The notes: generated from the sequence alone by a model not told the origin. A DNA stretch of 12,167 bases from a virus (IMGVR_UViG_2617270997_000007:1-12167); one strand, 5' to 3'; counted from the first letter of the stretch, positions 1 through 11,297 are shown. Made by a program: numbers and translations.

Positions 1-31
1 GGTAAATCTTTAAATTCCATCGTCAACCTCA

Positions 32-184
32 TCAGTCGGAGTTTCTTGCTAACCAGCGACGCGCGCCAGCTTCGGTTTTAAACGTTTTGCTTTTGGTATA
101 TGTCATGGCGGTGAATGTGCCGTCCTGGTTGGGGAACACACCACATACCAGAGATTCGCTGTTGCCAAGATCGATAGTATCCAT
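32..184 (-). CDS. Small hypothetical protein (50 aa) downstream of the repressor gene, at the position lambda uses for rex-type accessory genes
   Basis: The track ORF 32..289 begins with TTG and has no Shine-Dalgarno. The in-frame ATG at 184 is preceded on the - strand by GAGG with about 6 nt spacing, giving MDTIDLGNSESLVCGVFPNQDGTF... The longer TTG form cannot be excluded. Confidence 0.35.
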   Translation of the reverse strand: MDTIDLGNSESLVCGVFPNQDGTFTAMTYTKSKTFKTEAGARRWLARNSD

Positions 185-373
185 GCTGACCTCATTACCC
201 CTTAACGCCGGGTAGCGGAACTGTTTGCTGAGAACACCGTGCGGTGTCTTGATGGGTGGTAATTTAGTTTTATCATGAATGTTGGTCAAGCATTTTTAAT
301 GAGAAAACTCAATATTTAATGCAAAATAAAGCCAATACATTGAAATGTAAGGCTTTAAAATTTGTGAAGGGGG

Positions 374-781
374 TTACTGATGTTTGTTACGTTTGCGAGC
401 TTCTAGTAGCTCGGTGAATAGGCGATTAAAATTCTCAACGCGGGCACGGAGTTCGCTGATTTGTGCTTGCTGCTCTGATTTTGGAAGTGCGCGATACAAT
501 CGCAACATCTCCAACTCATCTTCCGATAAGTCTAAGGCGCTGTTGAGTGCTACTGGTGGATCTGGTGTTTTATCCTCGTCACCAAACAGTATCCAAGTTG
601 GTGAACATTGCAATACCTCAGCCAGGCGATGCAAATTTTGCCCGCGCGGGGCTGTATGGTCGCTTTCCCATAGTGAAATTGATGAGCCAGATACGCCAGC
701 GGCTTTGCTTAAATCGTTTTGACTTAAACCAACCTGTTTGCGTCTTTCTCTAATTCGTTGACCTAAAGTTTTCTCGTTCAT
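374..781 (-). CDS. dicA: HTH (XRE-family) prophage repressor, DicA-like, 135 aa, no peptidase S24 domain
   Basis: Complete ORF, MNEKTLGQRIRERRKQVGLSQNDLSKAAG... with the motif LQCSPTWILFGDEDK that I recall from E. coli DicA (also 135 aa). Divergent from a Cro-like gene. Too short to carry a LexA-like autocleavage domain. Confidence 0.8.
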   Translation of the reverse strand: MNEKTLGQRIRERRKQVGLSQNDLSKAAGVSGSSISLWESDHTAPRGQNLHRLAEVLQCSPTWILFGDEDKTPDPPVALNSALDLSEDELEMLRLYRALPKSEQQAQISELRARVENFNRLFTELLEARKRNKHQ

Positions 782-858
782 ATTTAGATATCTTAATAAC
801 CCTTGACTTGAGATTCCTTGAATGATTACTATTGAGAAAACTCAACTTTGGAGGGGTG
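782..858. promoter_or_regulatory. Divergent promoter/operator region between the repressor and Cro-like genes
   Basis: 77-bp intergenic spacer between divergent start codons. TTGACT at 803-808, an 18-bp spacer, then TACTAT at 827-832 could drive the Cro-like gene. GGAGGGG at 850-856 is its ribosome-binding site. Operator half-sites were not resolved by eye. Confidence 0.45.
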
Positions 859-1086
859 ATGTTTAAATCAGACGTAATTAATTTTTATGGGACGAAAGCC
901 AAAGTAGCGAAAGCTGCTGGTGTTGATCCATCTGCTGTTTCTCAATGGGGGGAACTGGTTCCTGAAGGTCGCGCGATGCGCCTGCAAGAGGCATCCGGCG
1001 GGGAACTTCAGTACGACCCCAAAGTTTATGACGAATATCGTAAGGCAAAGCGGGCGGGGCGGTTGAACAATGAAAATCACCCCTGA
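859..1086 (+). CDS. dicC: Cro/DicC-like small DNA-binding protein (75 aa)
   Basis: ATG 859 preceded by GGAGGGG; the track ORF starts further upstream at a TTG (832). Small basic protein divergent from the DicA-like repressor, the classic cro position. Sequence MFKSDVINFYGTKAKVAKAAGVDPSAVSQWGELVPEGRAMRLQEASGGELQYDPKVY... The symbol is from memory of DicC and is not verified. Confidence 0.55.
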   Translation: MFKSDVINFYGTKAKVAKAAGVDPSAVSQWGELVPEGRAMRLQEASGGELQYDPKVYDEYRKAKRAGRLNNENHP

Positions 1087-1621
1087 ACAGGTTTGTGAGG
1101 CTCTGGATGCCTGGGTATGTCGACCAGGAATGACACAGGAGCAAGCGACGATATTAATCACGGAAGCATTCTGGGCTCTGAAAGAACGCCCGAACATCGA
1201 TGTTCAACGCGTCACGTTTAATGATGGCGAGGTTGATCAACGGGCGCTGGGCGTTAACCGGGTGAAGATATTCGAACGCTGGAAAGCTATCGACACCAGG
1301 GATAAGCGGAAAAAATTCACGGCGCTGATTCCGGCAATTATGGAGGCTATCCGAATTAGTGATTTCAGGTTGTATCGTGAGATCAGTGATGGAAAAAGCA
1401 TTACGTACATGATCGCCGGATTAAACAAAGAATATGGCGATGTGGTGGAGTCCGGGCTGCTTTTTGCGGATCCAGCTGTTGTGGAACGTGAGACTGACGA
1501 GCTTATAGAAAAAGCTATTGCTTTCAAGCATGCGTATCGTCAGCAATATCAATATTACTTTGCAGATAAACAAATGTCTGCCAGGGGTTTGTATGAGTAT
1601 CGATGCACTACGATGGGCTAA
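1070..1621 (+). CDS. YdaT-like / CII-position early regulatory protein (183 aa)
   Basis: Complete ORF immediately after the Cro-like gene, overlapping its end by 17 nt. Lambda cII and Rac ydaT occupy this position. The family assignment rests on position and memory, not on a search. Confidence 0.45.
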   Translation: MKITPEQVCEALDAWVCRPGMTQEQATILITEAFWALKERPNIDVQRVTFNDGEVDQRALGVNRVKIFERWKAIDTRDKRKKFTALIPAIMEAIRISDFRLYREISDGKSITYMIAGLNKEYGDVVESGLLFADPAVVERETDELIEKAIAFKHAYRQQYQYYFADKQMSARGLYEYRCTTMG

Positions 1622-6642: not shown

Positions 6643-6784
6643 ATACAGCGAACGCCATTGGTTTAGTTGGATATTTACTGTGCCGGACAAAAACGGTTTG
6701 CGGGGAAATCTTAGTTAAGTAGAATAACTGCGGGTGCTTGAGGCTATCTGTCTCAGGCATGAACACCAAAAGGCAGATAGAGAA

Positions 6785-6851
6785 AAGCCCCAGTTAACAT
6801 TACGCGTCCTGCAAGACGCTTAACATTAATCTGAGGCCATATCTATGCGAC
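6785..6851 (-). ncRNA. sok: Sok-like antisense RNA of the hok locus (approximate position)
   Basis: Expected by analogy with hok/sok loci. A candidate - strand promoter has TTGACC (complement of 6882-6887), an 18-bp spacer and TAATCT (complement of 6858-6863), directing transcription leftward across the hok leader. The 3' end is not defined. Confidence 0.25.
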
Positions 6852-6904
6852 ACATAGAGATTAGCCTCTTACGGACCGAAAGGTCAAGGAGAAGCAGGCT
6901 ATGA
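6845..6904 (+). CDS. Mok-like short upstream ORF (19 codons) coupled to hok
   Basis: ATG 6845, translation MRHIEISLLRTERSRRSRL*, with stop TGA 6902-6904 overlapping the hok ATG (ATGA). Too short to judge on composition alone. Confidence 0.25.
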   Translation: MRHIEISLLRTERSRRSRL

Positions 6905-7056
6905 AGCAGCAAAAGGCGATGTTAATCGCCCTGATCGTCATCTGTTTAACCGTCATAGTGACGGCACTGGTAACGAGGAAAGACCTCTGCGAGGTACGAA
7001 TCCGAACCGGCCAGACGGAGGTCGCTGTCTTCACAGCTTACGAACCTGAGGAGTAA
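6901..7056 (+). CDS. hokD: Hok/Gef-family type I toxin (51 aa), HokD/RelF-like
   Basis: Translation MKQQKAMLIALIVICLTVIVTALVTRKDLCEVRIRTGQTEVAVFTAYEPEE*, which matches Hok-family toxins and, as far as I recall, E. coli HokD closely. AAGGAG lies 9 nt upstream. Absent from the ORF track because it is under 60 aa. Confidence 0.85.
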   Translation: MKQQKAMLIALIVICLTVIVTALVTRKDLCEVRIRTGQTEVAVFTAYEPEE

Positions 7057-7126
7057 GAGACCCGGCGAGGGAGAAATCCCTCGCCACCTCTGATGTGGCA
7101 GGCATTCTCAACGCACCCGCACTTAA

Positions 7127-7150
7127 CCCGCTTCGGCGGGTTTTTGTTTT
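7127..7150 (+). terminator. Rho-independent terminator at the 3' end of the hok transcript
   Basis: Stem cccgc / loop ttcg / stem gcggg followed by tttttgttttt. A separate perfect 9-bp hairpin (ggcgaggga-gaaa-tccctcgcc, 7064-7085) lies just after the hok stop and may be the 3' fold-back element of hok mRNA. Confidence 0.75.
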
Positions 7151-7272
7151 TATTTTCAACGCATTTGAAGTTCTGGACGGTGCCGGAATAGAATCAAAAA
7201 TACTTAAGTAGCGCGCAGGGATAAGAGGGATGGTCCCTTAAAGGGGAGAGCTAATTATCCGGAAGGATTCTG

Positions 7273-7524
7273 ATGATGAACATCGAAGAACTGCGTAAAA
7301 TTTTTTGTGAAGATGGCCTCTATGCTGTGTGCGTTGAAAATGGAAATATTGTTAGTCATTACCGCATTGTGTGTTTGCAAAAAAATGGGGCTGCGTTAAT
7401 TAATTTTGTGGATGCCCGAGTGACGGACGGATTTATCTTGCGCGACGGTGAGTTTGTCACTTCATTACAGGTATTGAAAGAGATCGGAATAAAAGCTGGC
7501 TTTTCTGCTTTTTCAGAAGAATAA
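7273..7524 (+). CDS. rem: Rem-like small protein (83 aa)
   Basis: Complete ORF with GGAAGGA 5 nt upstream of ATGATG. Same size and position (between hok and the DUF968 gene) as rem in the K-12 Qin prophage. Symbol is from synteny and size, not sequence recall. Confidence 0.4.
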   Translation: MMNIEELRKIFCEDGLYAVCVENGNIVSHYRIVCLQKNGAALINFVDARVTDGFILRDGEFVTSLQVLKEIGIKAGFSAFSEE

Positions 7525-8929: not shown

Positions 8930-9304
8930 ATGCTCATAGATTTGGTTTTACCTTACCCGCCGACGGTGAACACTTACTGGCGACGCCGTGGCAGCACATA
9001 TTTTATCTCGGAGGAGGGAAAGCGTTATCGCCGGGCTGTGGCGCTTATTGTTTGCCAGCAGCGGCTGAAATTAAGCCTGTCCGGAAGGCTGGCGATAAAG
9101 GTGATTGCAGAGCCACCGGATAAGCGTCGTCGCGACCTGGACAATATCCTGAAAGCACCGCTGGATGCGCTGACGCATGCGGGAGTGTTAATGGACGATG
9201 AGCAGTTTGATGAAATCAATATCGTTCGTGGTCAGCCAGTATCTGGTGGACGTCTGGGGGTGAAGATTTACCCCATAATGCATGAAGAGCAGGTCAAAAA
9301 ATGA
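8930..9304 (+). CDS. rusA: RusA crossover-junction endodeoxyribonuclease (Holliday junction resolvase), 124 aa
   Basis: Motifs PYPPTVNTYWRRRG, RRRDLDNILKAPLDALT and MDDEQ line up with the RusA signature (WPPSNNRYY, RRRDLDN, DD.Q). AGAGGTGA upstream. Confidence 0.85.
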   Translation: MLIDLVLPYPPTVNTYWRRRGSTYFISEEGKRYRRAVALIVCQQRLKLSLSGRLAIKVIAEPPDKRRRDLDNILKAPLDALTHAGVLMDDEQFDEINIVRGQPVSGGRLGVKIYPIMHEEQVKK

Positions 9305-10122
9305 AACTGGAAGATTTACCGAAATACTACTCCCCAAAATCCCCTGGCCTGACCGATGCATCGGCCTCAACGTCAAAAGATGCGCTGAGTATCACTGATG
9401 TGATGGCCGCGCAGGGCATGACACAGAATCGGGCTGAGATGGGTTTTTCTGCGTTCCTGGGGAAAATGGGCATCAGTATGAATGACAGGGTGCGGGCAAC
9501 AGAATTACTGGCAGATTATGCACTCAGTCGGTGCGATCGTGTGGCGGCGTTGAGAAAACTTCCGGCAGAAATAAAACCGGTAGTGATGCGCATTATGGCT
9601 TCGTACGCTTTTGAGGATTATGCCCGCAGCGCAGCGAGTAAAAAGCAGTGCCCTTGTTGCTATGGGGAAAAATTTATTGAAAGCATAGTTTTTACAAACA
9701 AGGTCCAGTATCCGGATGGTAAGCCGCCGGTATGGGCAAAGTGTACGAAAGGTGTGTATCCGTCTTACTGGGAAGAATGGAAAAAAGTCAGGGAGGTGGT
9801 AAAAGTTGCCTGTCCGGAGTGTGGCGGAAAGGGTGAGGTTTCCACCGCCTGTAAGGATTGCCGTGGGCGTGGTGTCGCCATTCACCGTGAAGAGTCGGTA
9901 AAACGTGGTATGCCTGTTATCAGAGACTGCCAGCGTTGTGGTGGTCGTGGCTATGAAAGACTACCATCAACGGAGGCATTTAATGCTATATGCGAGGTGA
10001 CAAACCAGATAACACGCGCGTCATGGGAAAAAACAGTTAAGAAATTCTATGATGCGCTGGTGACCCGGTTTGATATTGAAGAAGCATGGGCTGAGCGGCA
10101 GTTAAAAAAGGTAACTAGGTAA
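9301..10122 (+). CDS. Late-gene antitermination protein Q-like (273 aa) with CxxC zinc fingers
   Basis: ATG 9301 overlaps the rusA stop (ATGA). Cys-rich C-terminal region CPECGGKGEVSTACKDCRGRG...CQRCGGRGY. Sits directly upstream of a lambda-type PR', the canonical Q position. Confidence 0.6.
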   Translation: MKLEDLPKYYSPKSPGLTDASASTSKDALSITDVMAAQGMTQNRAEMGFSAFLGKMGISMNDRVRATELLADYALSRCDRVAALRKLPAEIKPVVMRIMASYAFEDYARSAASKKQCPCCYGEKFIESIVFTNKVQYPDGKPPVWAKCTKGVYPSYWEEWKKVREVVKVACPECGGKGEVSTACKDCRGRGVAIHREESVKRGMPVIRDCQRCGGRGYERLPSTEAFNAICEVTNQITRASWEKTVKKFYDALVTRFDIEEAWAERQLKKVTR

Positions 10123-10264: not shown

Positions 10265-10340
10265 CGGCCCTTTAGCTCAGTGGTGAGAGCGAGCGACTCA
10301 TAATCGCCAGGTCGCTGGTTCAAATCCAGCAAGGGCCACC
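10265..10340 (+). tRNA. ileZ: tRNA-Ile2 (anticodon CAU, lysidine type; formally also readable as Met), 76 nt with encoded CCA
   Basis: Cloverleaf folded by hand: acceptor ggccctt/aagggcc, D-stem gctc/gagc, anticodon loop ctCATaa, T-arm gctgg-ttcaaat-ccagc, discriminator A, CCA. Near-identical to E. coli ileX as recalled. Confidence 0.85.
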
Positions 10341-10347
10341 ATCACAT

Positions 10348-10424
10348 ACCGCCATTAGCTCATCAGGAAAGAGCGCCAGCCTTCGAAGCTGGTTGCGCGG
10401 AGTTCGGGTCCCCGAAGGCGGTCC
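10348..10424 (+). tRNA. argN: tRNA-Arg (anticodon UCG), 77 nt, with non-canonical features
   Basis: Anticodon arm ccagc-ctTCGaa-gctgg is perfect and D-stem gctc/gagc is good. The acceptor stem has one A-A mismatch at pair 6, the T-stem has one A-C mismatch, and the T-loop is ttcgggt (G where the conserved A58 is expected). CCA is encoded. Confidence 0.6.
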
Positions 10425-10437
10425 ATTATCTGTATCC

Positions 10438-10514
10438 TGCGTTGTTAGCTCAGCCGGACAGAGCAATTGCCTTCTAAGCAATCGGTCACTGGTTCGAATC
10501 CAGTACAACGCGCC
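10438..10514 (+). tRNA. argO: tRNA-Arg (anticodon UCU), 77 nt with encoded CCA
   Basis: Clean cloverleaf: acceptor gcgttgt/acaacgc, D-stem gctc/gagc, anticodon arm attgc-ctTCTaa-gcaat, T-arm actgg-ttcgaat-ccagt, discriminator G, CCA. Confidence 0.85.
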
Positions 10515-10529
10515 ACACTTATTTTCCCT

Positions 10530-10557: not shown

Positions 10558-10770
10558 TGTCTCACAATTCAGGCGGTTGACTGTTGTCTGGTTTGCGGGG
10601 AGTTTGTTAAAAGAAACTGGCATGGTGAATCCCCCTGTGCGGAGGGGCAATCAGCGAGTAGGTATATGGGATAATCGCGGATTCAGGTGCTGGTACTGAA
10701 TTCACCGGGAGGCACCCGGCACCATGCAATGGCACATAGCGCCACTCTCCAGCCCCTCTCCGGAGGGGCT
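10558..10770 (+). repeat. Structured repeat module A: promoter-like -35, two conserved GC hairpins and a terminal terminator hairpin (candidate small RNA or leader cassette)
   Basis: Shares ordered blocks with module B: ctcacaattcag; TTGACT (10574-10579); tttgttaaaa; hairpin cccct-gtgcgg-agggg (10629-10644); hairpin ccggg-aggca-cccgg (10702-10716) followed by ATG; terminator gcccctc-tccg-gaggggc (10749-10766) plus tttt. Confidence 0.6.
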
Positions 10771-10964
10771 TTTCTGTGCCGGATACATCACAGTTTCTGG
10801 AACCTTAGGTACTACAGTATCAGTCAGGGTGCTATATTTTCAGATGTGATGAAAGCCTGTCAGCAGGCAGGGCGTATCGGAAATGACCCAGTAGAGAAAA
10901 CGTTGACTCAGATACCGGTGCTGAGTTACCGGGAAACCGGCATCACATGACCGCTATCCTTCCA

Positions 10965-11028: not shown

Positions 11029-11262
11029 CTCACAATTCAGTAAGTTGACAGTTGCCTGTCAGACTGGGCATTTGTTAAAAAAATTTCGCATGGTGAATCC
11101 CCCTGAGCGGAGGGGCGACTGGTGACGGTATAATCTCTGATTATCAAAACGAGAATGACGCGGGTTTAGTGGCACCGGGCTGAACTCACCGGGAGGCACC
11201 CGGCACCATGTGCATGATGATACAGATACGCGGCTTTAGCCCCTCTCCGGAGGGGCTTTCTT
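11029..11262 (+). repeat. Structured repeat module B, paralogous to module A
   Basis: Same blocks in the same order: ctcacaattcag (11029-11040); TTGACA (11045-11050); tttgttaaaa; hairpin ccccctgagcggagggg; a TATAAT at 11129-11134; caccgggaggcacccggcaccATG; terminator gcccctc-tccg-gaggggc (11239-11256) plus T-tract. It has about 20 bp of insertion relative to A. Confidence 0.6.
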
Positions 11263-11267
11263 ATGGA

Positions 11268-11297
11268 CAAAAAAAGCCCGCGCTGGGAGACGCGGGC
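11268..11297 (-). terminator. Minus-strand intrinsic terminator immediately after module B
   Basis: On the + strand an A7 tract (11269-11275) precedes the hairpin gcccgcg-ctgggaga-cgcgggc (11276-11297). Read on the - strand this is hairpin plus U-tract. No convincing - strand gene lies upstream of it. Confidence 0.4.

Follow-up and report, generated by a model that had tools for sequence, protein, structure and literature searches.

The window analyzed here, a stretch of viral DNA of 12,167 nucleotides (IMGVR_UViG_2617270997_000007:1-12167), carries two genes on the minus strand between positions 32 and 781, namely the gene of a 135-aa DicA-type prophage repressor (374–781) and, downstream of it, a homologue of the small gene ydfA (32–184). 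An earlier prediction for this DNA (hereafter the original prediction) had placed both ORFs here, and both proved to be real genes when searched against Pfam (HTH_3 at residues 10–64 of the repressor, E = 1.2e−16, with no other credible domain; DUF1391 in the small protein, E = 4.6e−28). To the right of the repressor gene lie three putative operators (783–845), the divergent gene of a Cro analogue (859–1086, plus strand), and a YdaT-family gene (1070–1621, plus strand). We consider it highly probable that positions 32–1100 form the immunity region of a lambdoid E. coli prophage of the Qin/mEp460 type, built like the cI-OR-cro and OL/PL regions of lambda and working by the switch described further below. 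The first 1100 nucleotides of the window were up to 99.7% identical to E. coli chromosomes; part of them was matched in 3893 of 5426 complete genomes, and 797 genomes carried at least 80% of them. In strain 266917_2, the 99.7%-identical element is a complete lambdoid prophage adjoining potC. Leftward of the repressor gene, the relative prophage encodes the DUF1391 protein (ydfA), a ydfB remnant, the DicF sRNA, an IsrK/C4/Ash-Rha module, dicB, a DUF1482 gene, an exonuclease, xis, and int, while rightward it encodes cro, the YdaT-like gene, replication genes, hokD, rem, rusA, Q, and tRNAs.

The repressor ORF begins with an ATG at position 781, and its product was 56% identical to DicA of E. coli K-12 over residues 5–132 (128/135 residues, E = 2e−51), both proteins being 135 aa long, which bears out, across the full length, the DicA-like character originally proposed. 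The protein is laid out as a Cro/C1-type helix-turn-helix (HTH) domain (residues ~6–68), a proline-rich linker, and a helical C-terminal region (residues ~87–134). The original prediction had described an HTH domain followed by a short C-terminal helix; the HTH as the sole domain was confirmed, but the short helix gave way to a conserved segment of ~65 residues consisting of the linker and two predicted helices (87–97 and 101–134, no beta strands) in a single-sequence AlphaFold model of low confidence (mean pLDDT 63) that served for secondary-structure class only. These C-terminal ~65 residues were ~60% identical to K-12 DicA, slightly more than the HTH part. As had also been proposed, the repressor carries no autocleavage domain: a Peptidase_S24 match was absent from the Pfam search at E ≤ 1, and the protein is in any case too short for such a domain. 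Its sole Ala-Gly pair, read from the sequence, falls inside the HTH (residues 28–29), and none is found in the linker; the Ala-Gly bond that RecA-mediated cleavage requires is likewise missing from DicA (PMC10448788). Because the S24 peptidase domain is absent, RecA-stimulated self-cleavage cannot inactivate this repressor. The start codon is not preceded by an SD sequence and is abutted by an operator copy (783–796), and a leaderless PRM-type transcript is plausible by analogy with lambda cI and PaaR2.

Three candidate sites spaced 24–25 bp apart (centre to centre) make up the right operator region (783–845). Two of them, TTTAGATATCTTAA (783–796) and TTGAGATTCCTTGA (808–821), were located by pattern search, and the third, TTGAGAAAACTCAA (832–845), is a perfect 14-bp palindrome situated just past the −10 element of the cro promoter; the region was also recovered in the repeat search, as direct/inverted repeats D3/I6. 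The pattern TTGAG-N4-CTCAA with ≤ 2 mismatches occurred 7 times in the 12,167 nt, and 4 of these matches fell in the two intergenic regions (~160 nt, ~0.08 expected there), i.e., at the three right sites and at 299–312 on the other side of the repressor gene, the other three being found elsewhere in the 12 kb. The PR-like promoter of cro/dicC (803–832, plus strand, TTGACT-N18-TACTAT) is overlapped by the operators at 808–821 and 832–845. It precedes the gene of the Cro analogue, a DicC-like protein of 75 aa belonging to the P22_Cro family (Pfam E = 1.1e−17) and 71% identical to K-12 DicC. Judging from this layout and from K-12 DicA, the repressor would bind DNA at these sites and repress both the ydfA and the cro promoters. 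In K-12, only one of three right operators predicted from sequence (Oc) bound DicA in vivo (PMC3441716), and for this reason the weaker operators proposed here may not all function. The YdaT-family gene in the cII position encodes 183 aa (Pfam YdaT_toxin, 25.2 bits against a cut-off of 21), overlaps the cro gene by 17 nt, and is annotated as 'toxin YdaT family'. Its product is a probable functional analogue of CII; work on prophage CP-933P has argued against a toxin role for YdaT and in favour of a CII-like activator (PMC8630535).

The interval from the repressor stop codon (374) to the ydfA start codon measured 189 nt, in line with the ~190 bp given originally for the downstream ORF on the repressor strand. 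A terminator-like hairpin with a U-run (323–357, minus strand) starts 17 nt past the stop codon; the RNA fold of 310–376 on the minus strand had an energy of −12.3 kcal/mol (z = −3.98), and 0 of 200 shuffled sequences folded as well. This hairpin was not called by a generic terminator scan because its stem is AT-rich. It probably represents the terminator of the repressor transcript, and as it is AT-rich and modest, a share of repressor transcripts could still extend into ydfA. Beyond the hairpin, the promoter scan placed a dicBp-like (PL-like) promoter at 261–289 on the minus strand (−35 TTGACC at 289–284, 17-nt spacer, −10 TAAATT at 266–261), with putative operators at two positions. The distal left operator, ATGAGAAAACTCAA (299–312), differs from TTGAG-N4-CTCAA by one mismatch, lies upstream of the −35 hexamer with its end 9 bp away, and is conserved in mEp460_ev081. 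The proximal one, TTTAGTTTTATCAT (263–276; ATGATAAAACTAAA on the minus strand), is a weaker copy that covers part of the promoter spacer and the −10 element; its mEp460 version, ATGAGAAAACTAAA, is nearer to the consensus. This degenerate copy pairs with 296–313 as an inverted repeat. An alignment showed the same TTGACC hexamer and the same architecture at K-12 dicBp, where Qin-type operators occupy the corresponding two positions. Because the hairpin, a separate promoter, and the operator copies intervene, ydfA would lie outside the repressor transcript and head a repressed PL-like operon; ydfA is likewise the first gene behind the early-left promoter in NZ_CP026723, K-12, and mEp460. By its position, ydfA thus reads as a repressed early gene in the place of the first PL gene (N in lambda), and not as a rider expressed in the lysogen.

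As gene 1 of this early-left (dicBF-type) operon, ydfA encodes 50 aa that align with the DUF1391 profile (PF07151) from position 1 to 48 of 48 (97.1 bits, cut-off 27.3), are 92% identical to K-12 YdfA, and correspond to PHROG 751, in which the function is unassigned. Its start codon had been left ambiguous between TTG289, with no SD, and ATG184, with a GAGG motif; the motif lies 5 nt before the ATG, and the ambiguity is now resolved in favour of ATG184. The longer reading (32–289, minus strand, 85 aa) draws on a frame that is open throughout from 289 to 32, but the DUF1391 profile aligns with residues 37–84 of this ORF and thus begins at the Met of ATG184, RefSeq annotates a matching 153-nt gene (the 50-aa form), and TTG289 forms the first three bases of the −35 hexamer TTGACC of the ydfA promoter. 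From this promoter to the ATG, the window, K-12, and mEp460 have nearly the same DNA apart from 1-nt indels, which shift the frame, and in K-12 a stop codon in frame with ydfA occurs upstream of it, at −93. Based on the profile start, the RefSeq gene, the position of TTG289 within the promoter, and the upstream frame shift and K-12 stop, ATG184 is the start of ydfA, and it is extremely improbable that the 85-aa ORF represents the real product. With this ORF as query, YdfA matched no PADLOC defence family at E ≤ 1. The comparison with solved structures returned a sub-threshold match of YdfA residues 18–39 to the head decoration protein of phage 21/lambda (E = 0.14), which was rejected; this match is the probable origin of the labels 'head-DNA stabilization protein D' carried by ydfA homologues in phage records ON470583, ON470580, and PV340562, which are probably an annotation artefact. 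The ydfA leader (window 185–256, minus strand, ~70 nt) is almost identical in the window, K-12 Qin, and mEp460_ev081, while the adjacent operators and the repressor gene have diverged strongly. It holds a small hairpin (ACACCG-CA-CGGTGT), but the fold energy of 182–256 (minus strand) was no better than that of shuffled sequences when a structured nut/put-like RNA was sought (z = +0.56), and the Rfam scan of window 1–1100 at E ≤ 10 gave only two chance-level miRNA matches, neither the leader nor the intergenic regions yielding a described RNA element. The conserved leader may simply mark a recombination boundary of the immunity module.

A candidate for switching off the repressor is encoded 6.5 kb from its gene: rem (7273–7524, plus strand) specifies an 83-aa antirepressor of DicA-type repressors with 93% identity to K-12 Rem. 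Rem was discovered by homology searches that started from the Gifsy antirepressor GfoA, and in K-12 it derepresses dicBp 165-fold (PMC10448788). With a proven antirepressor matched at this identity in the window and no S24 domain in the repressor, it is very probable that, as originally proposed, induction needs an antirepressor and not RecA-stimulated self-cleavage, and by analogy with K-12 derepression most likely proceeds via Rem. The promoter/terminator scan identified the hok terminator (7125–7142) and a promoter-like sequence (TTGAAG-N18-TAGAAT, 7165–7194) upstream of rem. A search for LexA boxes (CTGT-N8-ACAG) upstream of rem and in the immunity region gave none with ≤ 1 mismatch near rem, and matches in the window as a whole were at chance level (6 vs. 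3.6 expected); no copy of the TTGAG-N4-CTCAA operator was present in 7058–7272 upstream of rem. In PADLOC, Rem showed no homology to defence systems. The gene was present in 15 records of the phage collection, and all compared phage records with a full-length DicA-type repressor (HannyBb, the PPompW group, MN652886 'Rac', and mEp460_ev081) carried it, the rem and repressor genes of mEp460_ev081 being taken from its annotation and the other records being compared across two lists. In mEp460_ev081 and HannyBb, Rem is kept at 91.6% protein identity alongside this type of repressor. Between the window and Qin, Rem is 93% conserved but the repressors share just 56% identity, and one possibility that fits these values is that Rem targets the C-terminal half, which is conserved among DicA-family repressors, independently of operator specificity. 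If so, it could induce co-resident heteroimmune prophages in trans, as the Gifsy antirepressors do.

The closest characterised counterpart of this region belongs to the cryptic prophage Qin of E. coli K-12, in which DicA represses dicBp 22-fold and the dicBF transcript initiates at dicBp, upstream of ydfA (PMC10448788), and in which DicA also activates its own gene and represses dicC via the Oc operator (PMC10448788, PMC3441716). About 1% of K-12 cells derepress dicBp spontaneously, in a DicC-dependent and Rem-independent manner (PMC10448788). Qin and the window share a 135-aa repressor, a dicC gene divergent from dicA, and ydfA downstream on the dicA strand, with identities of 92% for YdfA, 71% for DicC, and 93% for Rem; the ~70-nt ydfA leader is near-identical, and the −35 hexamer and operator placement around the ydfA promoter are common to both, the Qin operon being dicBp-ydfABC-dicF-dicB. 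In contrast, the repressors are only 56% identical, and the Qin operator is TTGTTAGTCATAACTAACAA (Oc) whereas TTGAG-N4-CTCAA is found here; since the operators differ, so does the immunity specificity. Qin is moreover a decayed remnant, while close relatives of the element in the window are complete prophages with int, xis, replication, and Q genes. Conserved architecture combined with differing specificity is the usual picture among heteroimmune lambdoid phages, and the system has in this sense already been described: it is a heteroimmune member of the characterised DicA/DicC/dicBp/Rem family, for which the idea of an antirepressor has been published as well. The same immunity allele as in the window is found in mEp460_ev081 (LR597641, 91% nucleotide identity over window 1–1100) and in HannyBb (PP925841, 90% nucleotide identity over window 1–1100, repressor 96% identical), both of which have ydfA, the operators, cro, the YdaT-like gene, and rem, and differ from it in ~9% of nucleotides and in small intergenic indels. 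PMC10448788 explicitly mentions the former as a functional phage in which dicA, dicC, and rem are all present.

More distant systems resemble the region in part. The Salmonella prophages Gifsy-1 and Gifsy-3 are described, in the account given by PMC10448788 (citing Lemire et al. 2011), as having short lambdoid repressors without a cleavage site (GfoR/GftR), which are inactivated by small antirepressors encoded elsewhere in the prophage from LexA-controlled genes. By this description, a short non-cleavable repressor and a distant small antirepressor gene are common to both systems, but the antirepressor genes are LexA-controlled in Gifsy, while no CTGT-N8-ACAG box was found upstream of rem here. 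Lambda and P22 are similar in having a repressor, a tripartite OR, a divergent cro, and OL/PL on the repressor side. The repressor of the window resembles P22 C2 in its HTH domain; the three OR sites of lambda are also spaced similarly. Lambda cI and P22 C2, however, are autocleavable S24 repressors, and in lambda rexAB is carried on the cI transcript and expressed in lysogens, whereas here the repressor has no S24 domain and, judging by the layout, nothing is co-transcribed with it. The PaaR2-YdaS-YdaT system of prophage CP-933P (E. coli O157:H7) likewise combines a non-cleavable CI analogue, a Cro analogue, and a YdaT-family CII analogue in a bistable switch with a leaderless repressor gene (PMC8630535). 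It differs in that the toxin-antitoxin pair paaA2-parE2 is co-transcribed after the repressor gene, while the layout here suggests no such pair and the Cro analogue is of the P22_Cro/DicC type.

Taken together, a lysogen carrying this region would be maintained by a dimer of the 135-aa repressor bound to 14-bp TTGAG-N4-CTCAA operators. Bound at the three right operators, the repressor would shut the PR-like promoter and would probably also control its own expression from a PRM-like promoter that is weak and possibly leaderless, while at the two left operators around 261–289 it would shut the early-left operon headed by ydfA, which, to judge from near-identical prophages, should continue with ydfB, the DicF sRNA, dicB, the exonuclease gene, xis, and int. 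Transcription of the repressor gene probably stops at the hairpin just past the stop codon. Repression would most likely be relieved by Rem (7273–7524), and a DicC-dependent bistable flip, as in K-12 Qin, may provide a second route. The gene identities, the absence of S24, the arrangement of operators, promoters, and hairpin, and the presence of rem are observed in the window, while the repressed state of the ydfA promoter, the way Rem acts, and the bistable behaviour would carry over from experiments in K-12. As the operators differ and the repressor shares only 56% of its residues with the DicA that was tested, the repression exerted by the allele in the window and its sensitivity to Rem are extrapolated.

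The original prediction had likened the small ORF to the rexAB-type exclusion genes of lambda, in which case it would ride on the repressor transcript, be expressed in the lysogen, and exclude other phages. Its position directly downstream of the repressor gene on the same strand agrees with this, as do the ydfA transcripts detectable in wild-type stationary-phase cells of K-12 and the protection that DicB, a product of the same operon, gives against ManYZ-using phages, which links the operon to exclusion (PMC10448788). At the sequence level the comparison nevertheless fails, because the hairpin (z ~ −4) and an operator-flanked promoter of its own separate ydfA from the repressor gene and no PADLOC match was obtained; in addition, the K-12 transcript starts at the DicA-repressed dicBp (PMC10448788), and the known exclusion activity is that of DicB, YdfA having neither PADLOC similarity nor an assigned function. 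A lysogen-expressed exclusion gene is hence very improbable, and we retain ydfA as a repressed early gene. Since YdfA has no assigned function, it could also be a functional early regulator or exclusion factor in the position of lambda N instead of a passive small ORF, and the protein and its ~70-nt leader are near-invariant across heteroimmune prophages whose neighbouring repressor and operators have drifted apart (to 56%); we regard this, too, as very improbable.

With regard to the repressor, a cI/C2 remnant, truncated through loss of the S24 domain as its prophage decayed, would explain why residues 1–72 align with the N-terminal domain of P22 C2 (PDB 1adr, E = 2e−15) and why P22-type repressors match that part only. 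Yet the remaining C-terminal residues are at least as conserved towards K-12 DicA as the HTH, the length of 135 aa recurs in K-12, the PPompW prophages, HannyBb, and mEp460_ev081, a matching antirepressor gene co-occurs, and what follows codon 135 is the hairpin and the promoter. The chance of such a truncation is negligible, and DicA-type repressors constitute a family of their own. More weight is due to the view that derepression mostly bypasses Rem, with a repressor that is intrinsically unstable or temperature-sensitive and a switch that flips via the Cro analogue, Rem being only an accessory. In K-12, urea and high temperature induce dicBp in a DicC-dependent and Rem-independent way, adding to the ~1% spontaneous derepression (PMC10448788), raising the temperature from 25 °C to 37 °C weakens operator binding by DicA (PMC3441716), and neither an SOS box nor an evident signal input precedes rem in the window. 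Against it stand the conservation of rem in mEp460_ev081 and HannyBb and the effect of ectopic Rem, which is by far the strongest derepression seen in K-12 (PMC10448788). We consider a mainly Rem-independent switch unlikely, though appreciably less so than the readings above; as a route, it complements the model in which Rem relieves repression and does not exclude it.

The significance of these results lies mostly at the level of annotation and goes little beyond it: what is annotated as 'helix-turn-helix domain-containing protein' and 'DUF1391' in ~800 complete E. coli genomes corresponds to a heteroimmune switch of the DicA/dicBp type with its own operators and Rem. What turns on rem is a question already posed in the literature, and mEp460_ev081 and HannyBb offer practical systems for addressing it.

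Several further features were recorded elsewhere in the window and in its relative. A perfect CTGT-N8-ACAG sequence with an AT-rich centre, CTGTTAATAAAAACAG, is located at 1924–1939 inside an O-like replication gene (RefSeq 1593–2633) and could be a chance occurrence or an intragenic LexA site. The 99.7%-identical prophage (L001, 12065–13159, outside the window) encodes the IsrK sRNA, the C4 antisense RNA, and an Ash+Rha-domain protein between DicF and dicB, which together make up a secondary immunity-type module of P1/P7-like character, an insertion within the dicBF-type operon; its Rha-family protein was considered as a second antirepressor and rejected, since the domains identified in it were Ash and Phage_pRha, with ANT/KilAC absent. 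A hok/sok type I toxin-antitoxin locus (6732–7057; Rfam sok 106.7 bits, hokD at 6902–7057) immediately precedes rem, an arrangement shared with Qin. Three tRNA genes (10266–10515), one with a CAT anticodon (Met according to ARAGORN, Ile according to RefSeq), Arg-TCG, and Arg-TCT, are found just downstream of the Q antiterminator gene (9301–10122), an arrangement typical of Stx-like lambdoid prophages. The STnc100 sRNA family is represented twice, at 10591–10781 and 11059–11268 (136 and 165 bits), between the tRNAs and the late genes.
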